From: Escherichia phage V18 | Sequence record: NC_041937.1 | DNA: 64,000 nucleotides | Direction: 5' to 3' (one strand) | The notes under the pieces: generated by a model | What the model saw: only the letters and a program-made list of their open reading frames with translations | Databases searched by the model: none | What the model was told of the DNA's origin: nothing | Made by a program: the position numbers and the translations under genes | In this document: positions 11,737-59,368 of the stretch, in pieces | Numbering within the stretch: the stretch's first letter is position 1 | Layout of the letters: the number at the start of each line of letters is the position of its first letter

Positions 11737-11967
11737 ATGAGTCATAACTCCAAGTGGAAGGATCTTGGTTTTGCAAGTCGGGCAGAGTATGTTGGTTGGC
11801 TTTGGTTCAACGGCCTGACAAACGATATTAAAATGTATGATGATGTTTATTATGACGAGTATACAGGTAAAATTATAAATATCTCTGTAGAAGAGGATAC
11901 CTTTATCCAGCAAGATACTGATACCTGCCTTGATAAATACGTTAATGAAGTGGAGGAAGCAAATTGA
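11737..11967 (+). CDS. hypothetical protein
   Basis: RBS AAGGTGGTG before ATG 11737; stop overlaps nrdA start. Confidence 0.35.
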   Translation: MSHNSKWKDLGFASRAEYVGWLWFNGLTNDIKMYDDVYYDEYTGKIINISVEEDTFIQQDTDTCLDKYVNEVEEAN

Positions 11968-14279
11968 TCACCAAGGTAATTAAAAGCAACGGATGTGAAG
12001 TGGCATTCGATCCAGAACGTTTAAATAAGGCAGCTATTTTCGGTGACGACGGTAACGGCAATTGGTCACATATTGCACTGGATGCCTACAAGCGGTTGTA
12101 TGATGGATGTACAACCAAAGAAGTTAACCAAGCTATTATAGACTCTTGTGTTAGCCGTAAAGACGAAGCACATTCCCGTATGGCTGGTCGTGTTCTTATT
12201 GGTCAGATCTATAAAGAGGCTTTTGGAGGGTTTACAAAGATCCCTTCCTTACCATCATTTTACAATGACATGGTTGAGAAAGGTTATTGGGAGGATATGG
12301 GTTATAGCTTTACCGAGCTAAACACTTTAGACGCTGTTATTGACCACAGTAAAGATCTCGGTTATGGCTATGCAGTCCTTAAACAGTTTCGCGACAAATA
12401 CGGGATCAAGGATACTCTTAAAGACACCTTGTTTGAATCTCCCCAGATGATGTTTATGGGGATAGCAATGGCTGTCATGAAGAATATGCCGAAAGAACGT
12501 CGTATCAACGATGTTGTAAAATTATACACTTATCTGTCCGACTTAAAGATCAATGCCCCGACACCGTACTTAAACGGGCTGCGCACAGGTAAGACAGGGT
12601 ATGCATCTTGTTGTGTAATAAAAGCTGACGATACAGCAAAATCTATTGGTGTGGCACGTGAAGTTGCGTACACAATGACGGTTAACCAAGCAGGTATCGG
12701 CTACTACTTATCCTCAAGATCTGCAGGCGATGGTGTTCGTGGTAACACTATTAAACATATGGGTAAGATTCCATATTATCGAGGTATTGATGCTGGTGTT
12801 AAGGAGAACAGACAACAATCACGTGGCGGTTCTGCAACAGTATCATTCCTTGCACTGGACCCGCAGATTGATGAGCTAATCCGTTTGAGAAACCCTATGA
12901 CTGTTGCTTCAAAAAGAATCAACACCATGGACTACTCCATCGGTATTAATAGGTCGTTTATCAACCGTGTGGCTAAGAATTTAGATTGGATGCTTGTTTC
13001 TTATAAGCACGCTCCTCAACTGCATGAGGGTATCTTCACCATGTCTATGGAGGAGTTCGATGCAGAGGTTGAGCGTATTGCTAAAGATGACAGTATTCCT
13101 AAGACATGGATCCGGGCTAGAGATCTTGCTGTTGAGCTGATCACGCAGCGTACTGAGGTGGGAAGACTGTACGTATACTGGACAGATGAGATGAATAGAC
13201 ATACACCTTTTAAAGATGTGATCTATTCAAGCAACCTGTGTGCAGAAATAGCCCTCCCGACAAAAGGCTATTCAGATATGCGTAATATCTTCAAGTACGA
13301 TGTTGATGATGGTGAGGTTGCATTGTGCTTCCTGTCATCTCTTGTAGCTGGAAGGGTTACCCCAGAGGAGTATGAGGATGTTGCATACTACACGGTGCTT
13401 ATGATTGACAATGTTATGGAAATCATGACATATCCGTATGAAAACATGGAGAGTACTGTTAAAAAACGCAGATCCATCGGGGTTGGCCTTACCAATGTTG
13501 CACATTTTATTGCCAGCCACAAGGTTACTTACGGATCTCCTGAAAGTAAACAGCTTGTTCACGATCTTGCAGAACTTCACAGCTACAGCTTGCATAAGGC
13601 AAGTTTACGGTTGGCAAAAGAGCGTGGTGTCTGCGAGTGGATGTATAAAACAAAATATCCAGAAGGTTGGTTACCAATCGACACTTATAACAAAGAGGTC
13701 GATAGTGTGGTGAAAGATCCTTCTCTTAAACAGGATTGGGAAGGGTTACGTAAAGAAATCATTGAAAATGGTGGGCTACGTAATAGCGTTCTTGAAGCAT
13801 ATATGCCTAATGAAAGCTCTTCGCTGGCAACAAACACCACTAACGGGGTTTATCCTGTCCGTGAGCACATTATCTTTAAAAAGTCGCCACAAGGGCAGGT
13901 GCTGTTTATCGTTCCTGAATACGATGAGTTGAAAGAGTATTACACTTCGGCTTGGGACGTTGATACTAACGACATGATCGATATGTATGCTGTGATTCAA
14001 AAATTCACAGGTCAGGCAATCAGCGCGGATTTATACATAGACTACACCAAGTTGAAAGATGGTAAAATTTCAATGAAGGAGCAGCTAGGGTACCTTATCC
14101 GTGCCACTAAATTCGGGATGAAGACATGGTATTATTTAAACTCTAGGGTTGGTGCTGGTGACTCCTTGGCAGAGGAACTTCATGCCAAGAAACAGGCTGA
14201 AGATGAAACCAGAAAGAACTATCCTTTGATTGCAGATAGTTCAGTTGAAGATCCGTATTGCGAAAGTTGTGCACTATAA
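11964..14279 (+). CDS. nrdA: ribonucleoside-diphosphate reductase large subunit (class Ia)
   Basis: 771 aa; N-terminal ATP-cone, active-site NLCAEI, C-terminal CESCAL. Confidence 0.9.
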   Translation: MITKVIKSNGCEVAFDPERLNKAAIFGDDGNGNWSHIALDAYKRLYDGCTTKEVNQAIIDSCVSRKDEAHSRMAGRVLIGQIYKEAFGGFTKIPSLPSFYNDMVEKGYWEDMGYSFTELNTLDAVIDHSKDLGYGYAVLKQFRDKYGIKDTLKDTLFESPQMMFMGIAMAVMKNMPKERRINDVVKLYTYLSDLKINAPTPYLNGLRTGKTGYASCCVIKADDTAKSIGVAREVAYTMTVNQAGIGYYLSSRSAGDGVRGNTIKHMGKIPYYRGIDAGVKENRQQSRGGSATVSFLALDPQIDELIRLRNPMTVASKRINTMDYSIGINRSFINRVAKNLDWMLVSYKHAPQLHEGIFTMSMEEFDAEVERIAKDDSIPKTWIRARDLAVELITQRTEVGRLYVYWTDEMNRHTPFKDVIYSSNLCAEIALPTKGYSDMRNIFKYDVDDGEVALCFLSSLVAGRVTPEEYEDVAYYTVLMIDNVMEIMTYPYENMESTVKKRRSIGVGLTNVAHFIASHKVTYGSPESKQLVHDLAELHSYSLHKASLRLAKERGVCEWMYKTKYPEGWLPIDTYNKEVDSVVKDPSLKQDWEGLRKEIIENGGLRNSVLEAYMPNESSSLATNTTNGVYPVREHIIFKKSPQGQVLFIVPEYDELKEYYTSAWDVDTNDMIDMYAVIQKFTGQAISADLYIDYTKLKDGKISMKEQLGYLIRATKFGMKTWYYLNSRVGAGDSLAEELHAKKQAEDETRKNYPLIADSSVEDPYCESCAL

Positions 14280-14283
14280 TTTT

Positions 14284-14306
14284 AAAGGGGCTTCGGCCCC
14301 ATTTTA
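14284..14306 (+). terminator. intrinsic terminator
   Basis: ggggc-ttcg-gcccc hairpin then atttt. Confidence 0.6.
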
Positions 14307-14318
14307 GAGGTTAGAATA

Positions 14319-15407
14319 ATGGCTGTATTTAATGCTGAGAACACCGCTCATAAAACTGGTGACTATCCGCTGTTTTTAGGACAGCAAATGGGTATGTACG
14401 ACTCTATCAACAAAAAATATCCACAACTGTTTGAACTATACAAAAAACAAAAAGAACAAGATTGGGCAGAGGATGAAGTGGATTTGTCGCAATCTATTTC
14501 AGATTTTGTAACATGCTCAAAGTCAACTTATGACGTGATGGTACAGACCTTGATGTGGCAATGGGAGGCTGATAGCGTTGCGGCAAGATCGATCATCTGC
14601 CTCTTTTCACCGTTCATCACTAATAGTGAGCTTTTCACTCTATTGATGAAACAGTCGGAGATTGAAGTTCTTCACGCACTAACTTACTCAGAGATTGTTA
14701 GACAATGCCTCCCCAATGCCCGTGAGATTATAGAAGAGATTCAGGAAAACCAAAACGTTCTGAGCAGATCCGGTGTTATTGTCAAATACATGCAAGAGCT
14801 AGAGGTTATTGGTGCAAAATACCGACTGGATCCTTCTAGTGTTGAAGAAGATGTTGTGCGGAAATGCATTCTTAGAGCGCTTTTTGCACTTTTAGCTCTG
14901 GAAAGTATTGAGTTTATTGCAAGTTTTGCATGCACTTTCGCAGTAGCTGAACAGGGTATCTTTGTTCAGGTGGCGCAGCTTGTTCAAAAAATCATGCTTG
15001 ACGAAATGCTACATTCGAAAGGTGATTTTGCCATCATTGATATCTTGCTTAACGATCCCGCATGGGAGAAAAGCTTCCTGGAGATAAAAGGGGAGTTAAA
15101 AGAGATTCTTGATGAAGTACGAACCAAAGAGTACGGTTGGAGTGACTATATTTTCAGCGAAGGAAGAGCGATTATAGGTCTTAACTCACCGTTGCTTAAA
15201 GAATGGGTTGACTATAACTGCTCACCGATTTATGATTACTACGACATCGACAAAGACTTTGTGCCGCCAACAAAGGACCCGCTACCGTTTATGCAGGTGT
15301 GGATGAAACCTTCATTGCAACAGACGGCGAACCAAGAAATGTCGAACACTGACTACCGCGTCAACACAACTGTTAACGACGCTGAAGAAGAAATTTGGGA
15401 GTTTTAA
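14319..15407 (+). CDS. nrdB: ribonucleoside-diphosphate reductase small subunit
   Basis: 362 aa; follows nrdA; iron-ligand helix pattern (ESIEFIASFACTF). Confidence 0.85.
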   Translation: MAVFNAENTAHKTGDYPLFLGQQMGMYDSINKKYPQLFELYKKQKEQDWAEDEVDLSQSISDFVTCSKSTYDVMVQTLMWQWEADSVAARSIICLFSPFITNSELFTLLMKQSEIEVLHALTYSEIVRQCLPNAREIIEEIQENQNVLSRSGVIVKYMQELEVIGAKYRLDPSSVEEDVVRKCILRALFALLALESIEFIASFACTFAVAEQGIFVQVAQLVQKIMLDEMLHSKGDFAIIDILLNDPAWEKSFLEIKGELKEILDEVRTKEYGWSDYIFSEGRAIIGLNSPLLKEWVDYNCSPIYDYYDIDKDFVPPTKDPLPFMQVWMKPSLQQTANQEMSNTDYRVNTTVNDAEEEIWEF

Positions 15408-15410
15408 TAT

Positions 15411-15689
15411 ATGAGCTGCGAAAAATCTTTTTTCATCATCATTTACGGTAAGGATAACTGCCCACACTGTGTCAGAGCAAAAGAATTTGCAATCAGCAAA
15501 GGTCTGCCTTTTGTATATAAGACACTTGGCGATGGCTACACAAAAGAAGAGCTTATTGAGAAGTGTAGTCCAATTGTCCCCAGAACGTTGCCGCAGATCT
15601 TCTTAGAAAGCGATCTTGACAGTATCCATATAGGCGGTGCCGACGATTTCATCTCTTTTGTTAAGAATGGTTTTGGAGAGAAAAAGTGA
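15411..15689 (+). CDS. glutaredoxin-like protein (NrdH/NrdC-type)
   Basis: 92 aa; CPHC redox motif near N-terminus. Confidence 0.75.
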   Translation: MSCEKSFFIIIYGKDNCPHCVRAKEFAISKGLPFVYKTLGDGYTKEELIEKCSPIVPRTLPQIFLESDLDSIHIGGADDFISFVKNGFGEKK

Positions 15690-16597
15690 AAGTTGTAAAA
15701 CGGGACGGTAGAGAAGAGTTCTATAACGGAATTAAGGTGATCAAGGCGGCAGAGTCCGCCTTACTTGAGTCTGGACATACTGAAGAAGAAGCTTACCGGA
15801 TCGCCTGCGCGGTTAATGAAGTTGTTGCTAACAATCTACCAACCGACCAGTGCACGATCTCTGTAAAAAATATCCATATCCTTGTTGAAGATGCTCTTAT
15901 GGATATGGGTTTAAAATGTGCAGCCAGAGAATACATCCAGTATAGACAGACAAGAGATAATAACAGAGAGGCAGGTGGAAAACTGCTTGCAGATATTAGT
16001 GGCTTCTTGGATCGAACTTGTGATGAATTTACAAAAGAAAACGCAAATAAGCCCACTAATCATGTACACACTCATCGTGACCTGCTTGCAGGCATCCTTA
16101 GCAAACACCTTGCATCAACACAGATCCTGCCAGACCGTGTTTCAGAAGAGCACAATAAAGGCTTCATCCATGTGCATGATCTTGACTACTTGATCAGTCC
16201 GTTAACAAACTGTTGTTTGGTAAATTATCCAGATATGTTGGAAAACGGATTCAACATTGGCAACGCCCATGTCAGTAAGCCGAAGTCAATAGGGGTTGCA
16301 ACAACAATCCTTAGCCAAATCTCTAGTGCGGTAGCTAGTGCTCAATATGGTGGTCAGACTATGAGCCATATTGATCATTATCTGGCACAGTATGCTGAAG
16401 CGACCTATGAGAAGAACCTTAAATTTTGCCAGGAACATTGGTTGCCAGATGCTGAGACTGTTGCAATGCAAATGACAGATAAAGACGTGTTTGACAGCAT
16501 GCAGACGTTGCTTTATCAGATCAACACACTAACCTCGGTAAACGGTAACCCCTTTTATCACATTAAGTTTAGGTTTGGACACTTCGGTCTTTGGTAG
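15686..16597 (+). CDS. nrdD: anaerobic ribonucleoside-triphosphate reductase, N-terminal segment
   Basis: ATP-cone N-terminus and NrdD-like body; frame lost near 16547, the last residues before the stop are out-of-frame. Confidence 0.8.
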   Translation: MKVVKRDGREEFYNGIKVIKAAESALLESGHTEEEAYRIACAVNEVVANNLPTDQCTISVKNIHILVEDALMDMGLKCAAREYIQYRQTRDNNREAGGKLLADISGFLDRTCDEFTKENANKPTNHVHTHRDLLAGILSKHLASTQILPDRVSEEHNKGFIHVHDLDYLISPLTNCCLVNYPDMLENGFNIGNAHVSKPKSIGVATTILSQISSAVASAQYGGQTMSHIDHYLAQYAEATYEKNLKFCQEHWLPDAETVAMQMTDKDVFDSMQTLLYQINTLTSVNGNPFYHIKFRFGHFGLW

Positions 16598-16796
16598 AAT
16601 GATTACCAAAAACTACCTGAAAGTCCACAAAATGGGTCTTGGTGAAGAACGTATTACACCTGTGTTCCCTAAAGTGCTGTTCTTCCTAGAAGAGGGTGTC
16701 AACATGAACCCTGGGGATCCTAACTACGATTTGAAACGATTAGCTCTGGAATGCTGTGCAGAACGTATCTACCTGACTTCGTATCTGTACCACTAA
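16575..16796 (+). CDS. nrdD: anaerobic ribonucleoside-triphosphate reductase, internal segment in a second frame
   Basis: GLGEERITPVFPK...GDPNYDLKRLALEC matches the NrdD core; frame lost again near 16773 and 16843. Confidence 0.6.
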   Translation: MDTSVFGRMITKNYLKVHKMGLGEERITPVFPKVLFFLEEGVNMNPGDPNYDLKRLALECCAERIYLTSYLYH

Positions 16797-16941
16797 ATAG
16801 AAAAGTGACAGGCTCGACAGATGGCAAAGTAACGAGCATGGGATATGTAGAAGTTTCTTATCGAAATATAGCGACCCTGTAACAGGCGAGGAGAAATACC
16901 TTGGCAGATTTAACTTAGGCGTTGTTAGCCTTAACCTGCCA

Positions 16942-17808
16942 ATGATTGCGGCAAAAGCTAAGACGGAAGGTGTTGATTTCTTTGCAGTTCTTGACGAATA
17001 CTTGGATCTTGCATACGAGGCTCACCTTGTAAGGGTTAATCGTCTAAAAGGAACAAAGGCGGGGCAGAACCCCATCATGTGGTGTGAAGGCGCTCTTGCT
17101 CGCCTGGATCCCGAAGAGAGTATTGATAAACTCTTCTATGACGGGTACGCTTCCATCAGTATTGGGTATATCGGTGTGTATGAAACCTGTCAGATTTTGG
17201 GTAGAGAAGGCGACAAGGCTTTAGCTCTTGGAATCCTTCAGCACATGAGAGATGCTTGTGAGCGATACAAGAAGGAAAGTAGACTAGCATTTAGCTTGTA
17301 CGGCACTCCTTCTGAGAGTCTATGCTATAAAGCTGCAACCTGTCTGGATCGTGAATATCCGGAAGTGTTGAAGCACGAGCATGAATATCTCACCAACAGT
17401 TTCCATCAGCCAGTATGGATAAATAGCTCTCCTTTTGATAAGTGGGAGTATGAGGAAGGTTTTGCTATGATCTCCTCTGGTGGCAACATCGGATACGTAG
17501 AGACACCTAACCTGAAAAACAACCTGGATGCTTTAGAGGCCCTTGTTGACTTCGGGTATAAACACATTATGTATTTTGGTATTAACCAACCTGTAGATAA
17601 ATGTCTCAAGTGTGGTTTCTCTGGTGAGTTCAGTGCAACAGCTAAAGGCTTTGTATGCCCAGAGTGTGGAAACCATGAAGAGGGAACGATCAGTGTAATT
17701 CGACGTGTGTCTGGATACCTTTCCAGTCCTAACTCCCGTCCTTACAATAAAGGTAAGCAAGCGGAAGTTATCGAGCGAGTTAAGCACTACGGAAGTTGTG
17801 GTTGCTGA
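16942..17808 (+). CDS. nrdD: anaerobic ribonucleoside-triphosphate reductase, C-terminal segment
   Basis: CLKCGF...CPECG zinc site and glycyl-radical region IRRVSGYL. Confidence 0.8.
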   Translation: MIAAKAKTEGVDFFAVLDEYLDLAYEAHLVRVNRLKGTKAGQNPIMWCEGALARLDPEESIDKLFYDGYASISIGYIGVYETCQILGREGDKALALGILQHMRDACERYKKESRLAFSLYGTPSESLCYKAATCLDREYPEVLKHEHEYLTNSFHQPVWINSSPFDKWEYEEGFAMISSGGNIGYVETPNLKNNLDALEALVDFGYKHIMYFGINQPVDKCLKCGFSGEFSATAKGFVCPECGNHEEGTISVIRRVSGYLSSPNSRPYNKGKQAEVIERVKHYGSCGC

Positions 17809-17871
17809 TTCTTGACAAAAGCCACAAGGATGTGGCATATTATTGACACACAGTGAGCTAGGAGGTGCAGT

Positions 17872-17988
17872 ATGTCATCAGGTATTTATAAAATTTGCAA
17901 GTGTGGTTGTCGTTGCAATCTTCGTTGGTGCAAGGCACTAGACGATTTTATTTGGCATTGCCCTAAATGTGATGCGGAGTATCTATGA
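17872..17988 (+). CDS. small cysteine-rich protein (38 aa)
   Basis: GGAGG RBS; MSSGIYKICKCGCRCNLRWCKALDDFIWHCPKCDAEYL; ATGA overlap with nrdG. Confidence 0.3.
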   Translation: MSSGIYKICKCGCRCNLRWCKALDDFIWHCPKCDAEYL

Positions 17989-18458
17989 ACATTGTCGGAT
18001 ACACAGAAATATCTTACACCGAAGGGCCAGGTATTAGAACTGCCTTGTGGGTATCTGGGTGCCCACACGCTTGCCCTGGTTGCTTTAATCAGGCATTTTG
18101 GTCAAAAGATAAGGGGAGGGAGTTCACTGAAGAAGATTTGCAAAAAATCTTGTCAGATTTAGATAACCTGTCTGTGTGCGGTATCTCTCTGCTGGGTGGA
18201 GAACCCTTAGCATACTATAATGAGCCAGATATTATTAGCCTGATGGAGAAAATTAAGGAAAAATTTGGTGACAAGAAAACTATTCTTGTATATACTGGGT
18301 TCACATTTGACCATATCTCTAGTGATGTTCTTAAACTGGCTGATATCATCATTGACGGTAAGTATGTAAAAGATTTACCAACCAAGAAACCGTTCCGAGG
18401 CAGCGATAACCAAAGAATGTTTAAAAAAGTAGCAGGCGGTTGGGTTCAGGTAGACTAG
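17985..18458 (+). CDS. nrdG: anaerobic ribonucleotide reductase activating protein (radical SAM)
   Basis: 157 aa; CPHACPGC cluster near N-terminus. Confidence 0.85.
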   Translation: MNIVGYTEISYTEGPGIRTALWVSGCPHACPGCFNQAFWSKDKGREFTEEDLQKILSDLDNLSVCGISLLGGEPLAYYNEPDIISLMEKIKEKFGDKKTILVYTGFTFDHISSDVLKLADIIIDGKYVKDLPTKKPFRGSDNQRMFKKVAGGWVQVD

Positions 18459-33356: not shown

Positions 33357-33976
33357 TCAGCCAGAAATATCTGAATAGGCCCGATCTGCCCAGTCAGGAG
33401 CCAGTAGCGACTGGAGTGCTGCCAGGCGGACGGAATGGGAATACTTCTCATTCTTATAACAATTCTCAAATATCGAGGCAGTGAGAGAAATTAATAGGCC
33501 AGGCCGTTCACACAGTGGCACAACATTTGCAACCTATCCTGTGGGGATGAATGAGAATACCTATCATTGTGAGAACTATTATCATTACGGGCAATTTAAC
33601 ATAATACCCATTATGCGCACCACTGGCGATACATACAGGGATTGATACCATGAGTTACAGTTTACACACATAACAATTATATTTCTTACTATTTGTGTGG
33701 GATATAGTTAGCAGCCAATAGATTAGATATTGACCTGTAGACTTCCAACCGTCTGGACGTCTAAACGCCCACACACCAAGGGTTATACATACATCGCTGA
33801 ATGTAAACAGGGCCGCAAAAATGCTACCATACCAGTTTGTAAATTTTTCATGCAGCACTTGACAAAGAGGAGAAAAACTTGTCTGACACAATGTCACACA
33901 ATATGACACTTTACACTGGACACACTAGGCACAAAAAAAAAAAACTGCAGTGACTAGGTCACCCCTTCAGGTGTTT

Positions 33977-38101: not shown

Positions 38102-38118
38102 CCCCCCCCCCCCCCCCC
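38102..38118. repeat. homopolymeric C17 tract (G17 on the coding strand)
   Basis: 17 consecutive C residues counted in the sequence, 37-53 nt upstream of the 38065 start. Confidence 0.9.
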
Positions 38119-56515: not shown

Positions 56516-58222
56516 TTAAAAAGGCGTTTCATCATCCTCAAAACCAGGGACCGGGTCAGAGGATGGATCATCGTACTGGAGGTCTTCCTGCGTGTCAACA
56601 GGCTTAACAGTAGGAGTTACAACCTTATCAGCCACAACCTTGCCCATAGGTGTTTCTACAACTGCATGCTCCTGATCCTCAAACATAGCCTGAGGTCTCC
56701 AAACAACCTCCCCGCCTTCTCCGTCTGTAAACATTTGCATTTCTTTGTCCCAGTACCAATTACTGGCATCATGGAACTTACCTGTGTGCGGGTCCATAAC
56801 CAAAGTGTCAGCAATACCTAGAGTTTTTGCTGGACGGTTTTTAAGACCTACCAGACGGACACGTCCACGAGAACGATCCACCATTTCTTCGGCCTCGACA
56901 CCTATGACTACCCAACTCAACTGTTCAAGCCCAGCCGATCCTCGCAAATTCTCTTTTCGCACAGGATACCAGAAAGGTAACGGGTTACCATCCTTGTCCT
57001 TAGGAGGCACAATCTCTGTACGTTTGAGGTGAGCGATCACCAAGATAAACACATTAAACTGCTTACAAAACGCAGCCAGTTGGGTCATAGCCATGTCCAG
57101 TTCTTTTCGCTCATCCTTAACATTAAGCCCTGAAATTACCATGGACAGGTGATCCAGCACAATATAACGACAATGGTACAGGCAAACCATTTGCTTAAGC
57201 TTGGTAATCAACTCGTCCACCGGAATAGACCCGAAATGTTTGAACACTTTGATTTTTCCAGCTTTTGCCCATGATTGGTGAATCTCTGCGTGTTCTTGAT
57301 CAGTTAAAAACTGGCTAGGATCTTCAACAAACTCTTTAACATCAAACCCTAACTGGTTTGCATACAAGGAGTTAATTGCTTCCTCTGGGTCCTCCTCAAG
57401 ATGGATCATGCATAGACGATCATCCTCTTCATAGTCATCAGCCTTCGGGCATGTCGGGTCCATTAGGTATCTTGCAATACAGTGTTCCAGTTTTTTAGCC
57501 ACGGTTGTTTTACCGCCCCCTGATGGCCCTGTAAGCATTACGAGTGTCCCTTTGTGCAAGCCTTTTAGCATTTTTTGCAGTTTTGGGAACTCTGCGCTGA
57601 TATCTACCCCGTTGGAAGTCTTTTTCCGCAAAGACTCGATAGAGAAGTCTTCTAAATCCGACACAGCATCAGGCACATATTTAACAGGATGCCGGAACAT
57701 GTTGACAATATCTTCCAGCTTTTTAGCCTTCAGCATGTCACGGATATCTTTTACACCGTCAGGATCGTTTACCTCACCGGGGTATTCTACGTGGTAAACG
57801 TTATCAGCCATCAAAAATGCTGCAATATTGTGCGTGGCCTCGACACCTTTAATGACGTGTTTTTGCTTCTCTACCTCGTTAGCTGCATCGTTATCCATTG
57901 CCAGCACAACTGTTCCATAGCTACGGATAAACTTCTCATTGTTTGCAAAAGTATCTACTGCGTTTGCACATCCACAGTTAATTCCAACAAAAGGTAGGCA
58001 AGGTTTTCCTGCCAGATCACCACCGTTGATAACTGCGTCGATCCCGTCCTGGACCTCTTTAGCCCACTGCTTCACCTTTGCCGGGGCTTTAGCGTTGGTG
58101 AGAATCCCTTTTACTTGTATCTGATATGCAGCCTGCCATGCTGCAATAACATCACCTTCTCCCTCACAAACGTTAATCTGCTTACGGTTGTTGGAAGATG
58201 CACACAGCTTTTGACCAAACAT
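56516..58222 (-). CDS. primase-helicase (T7 gp4-like): TOPRIM plus DnaB-family helicase
   Basis: 568 aa; TOPRIM VLAMDNDAANE; Walker A TGPSGGGKT; acidic C-terminus ending EDDETPF. Confidence 0.85.
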   Translation of the reverse strand: MFGQKLCASSNNRKQINVCEGEGDVIAAWQAAYQIQVKGILTNAKAPAKVKQWAKEVQDGIDAVINGGDLAGKPCLPFVGINCGCANAVDTFANNEKFIRSYGTVVLAMDNDAANEVEKQKHVIKGVEATHNIAAFLMADNVYHVEYPGEVNDPDGVKDIRDMLKAKKLEDIVNMFRHPVKYVPDAVSDLEDFSIESLRKKTSNGVDISAEFPKLQKMLKGLHKGTLVMLTGPSGGGKTTVAKKLEHCIARYLMDPTCPKADDYEEDDRLCMIHLEEDPEEAINSLYANQLGFDVKEFVEDPSQFLTDQEHAEIHQSWAKAGKIKVFKHFGSIPVDELITKLKQMVCLYHCRYIVLDHLSMVISGLNVKDERKELDMAMTQLAAFCKQFNVFILVIAHLKRTEIVPPKDKDGNPLPFWYPVRKENLRGSAGLEQLSWVVIGVEAEEMVDRSRGRVRLVGLKNRPAKTLGIADTLVMDPHTGKFHDASNWYWDKEMQMFTDGEGGEVVWRPQAMFEDQEHAVVETPMGKVVADKVVTPTVKPVDTQEDLQYDDPSSDPVPGFEDDETPF

Positions 58223-58239
58223 CTGGGAGTTGGCCTTTA

Positions 58240-58509
58240 CTATGCTACTACAGACCAGTGCCCTTTCTGCTCTTTCGGCTTAGACCAGTCACGCTTTTTG
58301 AAACCAGACAGATTTCCGTAGCGGTCGTAATATGGGAAATATGTTGCAGTGACTGTCACACCGTCTTCTTGGGACAATGCTGATCGCACACCAAAATATT
58401 GTGCAGCCATCAGACCGATATTTTGTTGTGGGACAGGGACAATTTTAGTATTTTCTAAAACAGTCTCTACAGTTTCAACCTCTTTTTCATCACGATAGTC
58501 TCGTTTCAT
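58240..58509 (-). CDS. primase RNA-polymerase-domain N-terminal segment, frame-separated from the primase-helicase
   Basis: RSALSQEDG...YDRYGNLSGFKKRD resembles the T7 gp4 segment YSALTARGIS...YRDQNGNIVSQKVRD; no Cys4 zinc-binding domain. Confidence 0.55.
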   Translation of the reverse strand: MKRDYRDEKEVETVETVLENTKIVPVPQQNIGLMAAQYFGVRSALSQEDGVTVTATYFPYYDRYGNLSGFKKRDWSKPKEQKGHWSVVA

Positions 58510-58582
58510 ACTACCCCCACTTTTGTATCTTGTTGCAACTGGGTTAGGTTCTCCATAGCGGCTATATGCAGAGGATATAAAC

Positions 58583-59368
58583 TTATTCCCCTCTCCTTAC
58601 TACAGGCTCGTTTGCTAAGAATACAGCTTTTGCCCAGCCACGTGGTGTGAGGCTTCGAATCATCTTCGTTCTTGCACTCTTTCCACCAAGCTTGGCGTGT
58701 TGCATGGAATACCCGCTAACCACGTCAACTATTTGCGGGACAGGTTTTGTGTCCGGGATTATAAATCCATTACCTATCCAGCCGCAAGTTATTTTTGGAT
58801 AGGCATCACGTGGAGCTATAAATTCAGGAAACCATGGGTTTACATCATCCTCAGGTAAATACCCGCCATAGTCAGAAGGATGAAAACGGTAATCAGGTTT
58901 GCGCCACAGTGTGGACATAACACCAACAGGATTCTCTACATGCCACGGGCAATCGTAAATCTCTCCCAGCTCTTCCGCAACCCGAGCATCCTTTACAGCA
59001 TTAATTTGGATCATGGGGTCCTTAGCCAGCTTTTTCTTAAAATGTGCAGCACCCGATACCGCTAAATGCGTGCACGGAGGAAATGCAAGAATAAAGTCTG
59101 GAGCTGGATACATGCAAAAAGTTTCCTGAGGGAACCACGGGTCAATCCAATAGTCAACATAGTGAATGTTGGGATGATCGGTTATCACCTCTGCATAACT
59201 GCCGTGATCAGCACCTTCTGCGTTAAAGCACAGGCACAGATATCCAGCTTTTGCCCAGTCAATGACTGCACCACCAGACCCGTCAAATAGACTCCACACA
59301 ACACCTTTGTGGTAGTGTTCTTTGTAGATAAATTTCAATTTGCTGTCTCCTAATGCAAAAAGCCCCAC
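58583..59368 (-). CDS. putative DNA cytosine-5 methyltransferase-like protein
   Basis: 261 aa; SLFDGSGG (motif I-like), FPPCTH (PC motif), HVENPVG (ENV motif). Confidence 0.5.
   Translation of the reverse strand: MGLFALGDSKLKFIYKEHYHKGVVWSLFDGSGGAVIDWAKAGYLCLCFNAEGADHGSYAEVITDHPNIHYVDYWIDPWFPQETFCMYPAPDFILAFPPCTHLAVSGAAHFKKKLAKDPMIQINAVKDARVAEELGEIYDCPWHVENPVGVMSTLWRKPDYRFHPSDYGGYLPEDDVNPWFPEFIAPRDAYPKITCGWIGNGFIIPDTKPVPQIVDVVSGYSMQHAKLGGKSARTKMIRSLTPRGWAKAVFLANEPVVRRGE

Follow-up and report, generated by a model that had tools for sequence, protein, structure and literature searches.

The closest described systems are the nrdD introns of other Vequintavirus phages (nom, navn, CM1, slur16, A140 and VB-EcoM-WM), which lie in the same gene and at the same two sites as the breaks described here, between exons at least 95% identical to the present ones, and which are annotated as a split nrdD with or without an HNH gene. 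No paper on the Vequintavirus nrdD introns specifically was found in the literature, and it is the GenBank records that show the split nrdD genes. Introns in the terminase gene were reported in the rV5 paper (PMC3606486), and HNH-containing introns in other genes of phage CB7, a related subfamily member, were shown to splice (PMC7344957). The intron of T4 nrdD (sunY), which carries I-TevII, is a self-splicing group I intron that, too, lies in a conserved region of a phage nrdD. It differs in its site, as T4 exon 1 ends near residue 273-277 of the present protein, about 10 codons upstream of the first Vequintavirus site, and in its endonuclease, which is of the GIY-YIG type in T4 and HNH/I-HmuI-like in the Vequintavirus introns. 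The intron ORFs of slur16 and navn share HNH_3 and a NUMOD-like domain with the I-HmuI-type HNH enzymes of the SPO1 and SP82 DNA polymerase introns; these are weak Pfam matches, the NUMOD-like one being under the cut-off and HNH_3 being under the cut-off for the navn ORF. As in I-HmuI-type systems, co-conversion tracts appear to adjoin the insertion sites, and homing by the Vequintavirus ORFs is putative.

The window, by which we mean the whole 64,000-nt stretch of DNA analysed, was assigned to an rV5-like (Vequintavirus) phage of E. coli. Unlike the intron-bearing Vequintavirus genes, its nrdD has no intron at either site and carries 2-nt defects at both junctions. With frameshift-rich, low-accuracy phage assemblies the window shares deletion-biased one-nucleotide indels in short runs and private frame-split genes, but two of the nrdD breaks (breaks 1 and 3 below), unlike the homopolymer under-calls of such assemblies, are tied to missing mobile insertions.

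Frame breaks in nrdD

The region 11964-18458 contains nrdA, nrdB, a glutaredoxin gene, nrdD, an ORF for a 38-aa Cys-rich peptide and nrdG. The nrdD gene, for the large subunit of the class III anaerobic ribonucleotide reductase, spans 15686-17808 on the plus strand and was identified by homology and by matches of its fragments to the Pfam families ATP-cone, NRDD and Gly_radical. At 2123 nt it is one nucleotide short of the 2124 nt of intact relatives (net -1), and its nucleotide identity to the intact 2124-nt genes of rV5-like phages is 97%. In the phage collection 119 records matched the nrdD stretch with a top identity of 97.4%, and no near-identical genome was found there, identity peaking at about 98% in the first 25 kb and at about 95% between 30 and 50 kb; a search of the E. 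coli genomes gave no match. The nrdG gene for the activating enzyme (17985-18458, plus strand) encodes 157 aa as in relatives and is intact, as the preliminary description had stated. The conserved 38-aa ORF between the two genes (17872-17988; CxC...CxC...CxxC) had no match in Pfam, and the annotation of some relatives labels it a "putative anaerobic reductase" fragment. Relatives also carry free-standing endonuclease-like genes (DUF723/T5orf172; L014 11815-12942, L005 5495-6427, L013 13541-14470) directly after nrdD or directly after phoH, and where such a gene follows phoH, phoH itself is of a diverged allele over its 3' two-thirds. The nrd-phoH block is a mobile-insertion hotspot.

Three-frame translation and alignment to relatives located a change at each of the places, near 16547, 16773 and 16843, where the preliminary description had seen the frame lost, and the flanking segments 15686-16546 and 16846-17808 are open, also in agreement with it. 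At break 1 (16546-16547, plus strand), which coincides with the intron 1 junction of relatives, GTAAACGGT reaches 16546 and is followed by AACCCC, and the frame passes from mod 2 to mod 0. The relatives read GGT or GGG, then CAA, then ACC or ACT, encoding N-G-Q-T-P-F, and the CA absent after 16546 is the start of the conserved Gln codon. At break 2 (16771-16772, plus strand) CGTATCTA reaches 16771, CCTGAC follows and the frame returns to mod 2; relatives read TCTA(C/T)CCTGAC, the window is 1 nt shorter, and the alignment places the loss in TCTACCCTGAC (CCC to CC). The nearest allele, that of an ENA scaffold with intron 1 (L019), reads TACCCTGAC there. At break 3 (16843-16845, plus strand), the junction of a 762-nt intron 2 in relatives, AGCATGGG reaches 16842 and is followed by ATA and then by TGTAGAAG, in place of the single T with which exon 2 of relatives closes (ATG GGT, then TGT or TGC and AGA or AGG); the net change of +2 takes the frame to mod 1. 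Across the three breaks the window reads GGTAACCCC, TCTACCTGAC and GGGATATGTAG, respectively, and the junction strings are GGTAAACGGTAACCCCTTT and CATGGGATATGTAGAAG.

All three indels were private to the window among 15 aligned relatives taken from GenBank, ENA, Logan and NCBI assemblies. When they were repaired in silico (CA and C restored, ATA replaced with T), a single ORF of 707 aa with one terminal stop was obtained, and the alignment of the repaired protein to an NrdD reference, which the preliminary description had proposed, gave 702 of 707 residues identical to that of phage rV5_ev168. The five amino-acid differences all fall in two flank patches common to the relatives with the corresponding intron. 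Outside the indel columns nrdD has six private substitutions, all of them synonymous, for which we estimate a probability of about 2e-4 under neutrality. As these substitutions are all synonymous and the repaired protein is nearly unchanged, nrdD was, we conclude, under purifying selection until essentially now. Three of the private synonymous substitutions lie within 10 nt (17202-17211), a cluster that may stem from recombination with an unsampled relative over a small patch.

The preliminary description had offered a decaying nrdD pseudogene beside an intact nrdG as one of two readings. The three disabling indels and the intact nrdG would suit a long-standing pseudogene, but the privacy of these indels among the 15 relatives, the 99% identity of the repaired protein to functional homologues and the synonymous nature of every private substitution speak against such decay, and we consider it very improbable. 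Programmed recoding by ribosomal frameshifting or bypassing, or repair at the RNA level, would restore NrdD from the frame as it stands, and the frame changes themselves are all that could be put forward for it. In relatives this protein is encoded in a single frame or reached by intron splicing, with all three positions in frame, and the changes are private, are of -2, -1 and +2 in size, and in one case remove a conserved Gln codon; this explanation is scarcely credible. Given about 20 frame-breaking indels per 64 kb, the chance of three breaks within 300 nt was calculated by us as about 0.03-0.06, with all 300-nt windows allowed for, and thus the clustering alone is only marginally unusual.

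Intron sites and exon flanks

Breaks 1 and 3 were found to be, to the nucleotide, the exon junctions of two probable group I introns of sibling phages, inserted in protein terms between NG and QTPF (site 1) and between SMG and CRSFL (site 3). The first nrdD piece of slur16 and nom is 864 nt long and the insert starts right after GGT (window 16546). Intron 1 occurs as a short form of 257 nt with no ORF (nom, navn and CM1) and as a long form of 797 nt with an HNH ORF (slur16). Intron 2, of 762 nt with an HNH ORF (navn, A140 and VB-EcoM-WM), lies between …AGCATGGGT and TGTAGAAG…, which is equivalent to window 16843. Examples of the intron sequences are TAACAAACTGGCCGTTTTAAAACTC and AAACTATAACTGCTCATGTAAAATC. 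Intron 1 sequence was present in 53 phage records, 14 of them with the full short form, and full-length intron 2 was present in 29. The long (L002 2362-3158) and short (L003 2362-2618) forms of intron 1 occupy one site and are about 87% identical at their 5' and 3' ends; around the long form the exon flanks are of ev168 type, and the short form has a flank haplotype to itself.

The inserts scored 35.3, 30.1 and 29.3 bits with the Rfam Intron_gpI model (E = 4.9e-6, 1.9e-4 and 3.2e-4), which is below the gathering score of 50, so that the match is suggestive of group I introns and not of curated grade. A P1 helix with a U-G pair at the 5' splice site could be read at both sites, AAACGGU with GCCGUUU for intron 1 and CAUGGGU with GCUCAUG (intron nucleotides 12-18) for intron 2; the 3' ends are ...ACCG or ...ACAG in intron 1 and ...AAUG in intron 2. 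Conceptual splicing yielded a single ORF with one terminal stop in nom (2124 nt), slur16 (2124 nt) and navn (2139 nt). By these features the inserts of the relatives behave as group I introns, and their self-splicing is predicted. The window nrdD holds no insert (2123 against 2124 nt), and no Rfam match was found anywhere in the window at E <= 0.1. The preliminary description, which had set introns aside, was thus correct about the missing insert and about the T4 intron, whose site lies some 10 codons upstream, but it overlooked that breaks 1 and 3 fall on the junctions of other probable group I introns. Break 2 was also considered as a third intron site, as matches to distant T4-like genes stop at 16771-16773. 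A Klebsiella phage nrdD, the one distant phage checked, is uninterrupted and 2124 nt long, and the end of these matches is therefore taken as decay of similarity.

The exons bordering both sites in the window were found to be like those of intron-bearing alleles. By alignment, 15686-16546 (plus strand) corresponds to exon 1 and closes with ...AAACGGT, which in relatives forms the context of the intron 1 5' splice site, and 16441-16590 (plus strand) carries the exon-flank haplotype tied to the 257-nt intron 1 in a table of haplotypes. All 14 phage records at least 95.9% identical to 16440-16660 are split by a 259-nt gap (480-nt span), and uninterrupted records of the phage collection are at most 91.0% identical over this stretch. 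Over 15686-16842, L019 differs from the window in four substitutions and in having the CA and the C at 16772, and is otherwise the same. Downstream of break 3, a recoded patch at 16846-16882 (plus strand; TGTAGAAGTTTCTTATCGAAATATAGCGACCCTGTAA...) is the same as the exon-3 flank of intron-2 alleles in the alignment; within these 37 nt the catalytic-site motif GCRSFLSKY is recoded by synonymous changes, and after it NDLE is replaced by SDPV. Over 16700-16960, the records that lack intron 2 do not exceed 93.2% identity. Exact-pattern scans that tolerated 0-6 free bases at the junctions found no intron-less allele with the window flanks in IMG/VR (both junctions), in GTDB genomes (junction 1) or in JGI metagenomes (junction 3). 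Copies of the scars were sought in E. coli genomes, and the two large nrdD fragments were looked up as exact proteins, with none found.

The presence of intron-linked flanks on both sides of each site indicates descent from an insertion-bearing allele, and on this sequence evidence the nrdD of the window appears to derive from an allele that once held both introns. The chance of two breaks falling within 1 nt of two independent intron sites was estimated by us as about 1e-5 to 1e-7, which argues against coincidence. Because they coincide with the intron junctions and lie in flank haplotypes seen only with introns, the breaks at 16546 and 16843 mark missing introns and are not random errors.

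Frameshift load and a third missing insertion

About 16 of the 127 CDS that the window shares with rV5_ev147 are frame-split, including those for an HNH endonuclease (2610), a Dam-like methyltransferase (7690), NrdD, a PhoH-like protein (19252) and the primase/helicase. About ten small genes carry further private frame-breaking indels, many of them within 27634-51709. Phage navn, whose divergence is similar to that of the window, was chosen as control, and for the same 83 ev147 proteins 12 were frame-split in the window and 1 in navn. The indels of the 6-23 kb stretch were private when compared with eight further assemblies. Relative to ev147, one-nucleotide deletions outnumber insertions by 28 to 7 in clean alignment context and are mostly in runs of 2-7. 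Break 2, a private 1-nt length change inside a run, belongs to the class of homopolymer errors, while breaks 1 and 3 are complex 2-nt changes outside that class.

A local cluster of sequencing errors, the other reading in the preliminary description, is therefore broadly supported: the window is rich in frameshifts and break 2 is a typical CCC to CC homopolymer loss, but breaks 1 and 3 stand at intron junctions. A stronger form of it, in which the phage truly has a precise intron-less nrdD and three unrelated random errors struck it, could draw on the general frameshift load and on break 2. It leaves two of three breaks within 1 nt of intron insertion sites as complex 2-nt changes, and a precise intron-less allele with these flanks is absent from the collections scanned; we find this improbable.

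Some other irregularities were observed in the window. Two runs may be oddities of assembly or base calling: 12 A at 33933-33944, and 17 C at 38102-38118, an intergenic place at which the sequence of rV5_ev147 is GC-rich and ordinary. An 8-nt tandem duplication (ATGACACA) at 8579-8588, private against nine relatives, lies at the start codon of a small gene, and its second ATG leaves that gene readable.

A third locus, on the minus strand, was compared with its closest relatives. The records nearest to the window over 58120-58640 are EmilHeitz (98.7%) and ECO121 2-1-1 (98.3%), and both have a free-standing homing-endonuclease gene of 666 nt between the genes for a dcm-like methyltransferase and the primase/helicase; the records lacking this gene are at most 93.8% identical. 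The window has EmilHeitz-type flanks at 58588-58591 and lacks the endonuclease gene. The CCCC at this position joins the upstream Shine-Dalgarno sequence to codon 2 of the primase/helicase, whose ATG is gone. In addition, a private 1-nt loss at 58246-58247 (minus strand; CC to C) splits the primase/helicase into ORFs of 89 and 568 aa. The junction at 58588-58591 repeats the pattern of nrdD, with insertion-type flanks, the insertion absent and the junction damaged. At three loci, then, the removal of an insert appears from the alignments to have followed exon homology to within about 2 nt. Such guidance by exon homology would point either to a computational step on an insertion-free backbone or guide, or to a DNA event templated by an insertion-free partner.

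Origin of the junction scars

We infer that an error of consensus or assembly probably lies behind the broken nrdD, a preference held with some reserve. The technical cause is favoured because frameshifts are in excess, the primase/helicase is damaged twice and no other sign of decay is present. Under this explanation the sequenced phage probably has two self-splicing group I introns in nrdD, and the record would give an intron-less and slightly damaged version of it. Breaks 1 and 3 would be junction scars at intron sites, where intron-type flanks meet with the introns absent and 2 nt wrong in each, and break 2 would be an ordinary 1-nt homopolymer under-call of the class seen in many other genes of the window. 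Such a record could arise when a low-accuracy consensus, such as a guided one or one of long reads from mixed strains, is built on a backbone or template without the mobile insertions. The insertion-bearing molecules would have passed their small variants on to the backbone, the insertions of 257 to about 800 nt would not have been transferable, and the bases adjacent to the gaps would have been mis-called. De novo assembly from a pure stock, if clean, could not lose the introns, which counts against an artefact and restricts it to mixed populations or to assemblies that were guided or edited.

Also against an artefact, the junction scars differ from the usual 1-nt homopolymer losses of the window, no collinear candidate for a reference exists among about 120 Vequintavirus records, and a guided consensus with local alignment, worked by hand, predicted clean junctions and did not reproduce the scars. 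The possibility that the introns broke the assembly as intragenomic repeats was also rejected, as each intron query matched one place per genome.

The gene order of the window, for which no collinear match was found among these records, speaks for the main alternative, a real, recent and imprecise loss of both introns and of the primase-adjacent endonuclease gene from an insertion-bearing ancestor; an unmatched order is expected of de novo assembly, which cannot drop inserts. The loss could have proceeded by endonuclease VII excision of heteroduplex loops after recombination with an insertion-free co-infecting phage or by microhomology-mediated deletion, and it would have left a freshly inactivated nrdD, tolerated as NrdD is dispensable in aerobic culture. 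The insertion-bearing-type flanks on both sides of each site, and deletion ends that at three loci are set within 2 nt by exon homology, agree with it. So do the CCC(C) microhomology of 3-4 nt that bounds the endonuclease-gene deletion, junction 1, which is readable as an AAC-repeat deletion plus the loss of one T, and the endonuclease VII homologue and ligase encoded in the window, as annotated in the homologous region. However, real loss would need three independent imprecise deletions and a third nrdD frameshift, all very recent, in a gene that shows no other decay and whose private substitutions are all synonymous. The deleted primase ATG together with the primase/helicase frameshift is hard to square with a viable phage, the load of about 16 frame-broken genes against about 1 in the control genome suggests poor sequence rather than biology, and the allele is absent from every other assembly searched. 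Real loss is thus possible but unlikely. Its particular form, in which the DNA is real and homology to an insertion-free partner guided an imprecise purge of both nrdD introns and the endonuclease gene, with donor-type flanks and scars of 1-3 nt, is rated slightly lower still; cleavage and re-ligation of large heteroduplex loops by endonuclease VII in a mixed infection would be a candidate for such a purge.

Several simpler models of the scars were examined and rejected. A CAAAC-repeat deletion at intron 1 would yield GGTTAACAAACCCC where the window has GGTAACCCC, and an AAC-repeat deletion fits only with the extra T loss. At site 3 no single-deletion model accounts for GGGATATGTAG. Loss mediated by spliced RNA (cDNA) explains the joint loss of the introns, but it does not explain the altered 5' exon end at site 3 and leaves the loss of the non-intronic endonuclease gene unexplained. 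Homing-endonuclease cutting, as a putative source of the scars, was set aside on the position and nature of the known cuts: I-TevIII, a characterised double-strand cutter, cuts 14-16 bp away from its insertion site, and I-HmuI-type enzymes only nick (PMC1865063).

With the technical cause preferred, the main value of the finding is in quality control: the nrdD "pseudogene" is not to be read as gene decay, and two introns and one homing-endonuclease gene are probably missing from the record. An exon-flank haplotype that otherwise occurs only with an insertion is diagnostic of a dropped mobile element when precisely the insertion site shows a small defect. The loss of introns and homing endonucleases in phages is usually inferred from patterns of presence and absence alone; scars that proved real would offer a rare direct view of the mechanism and the imprecision of such loss.
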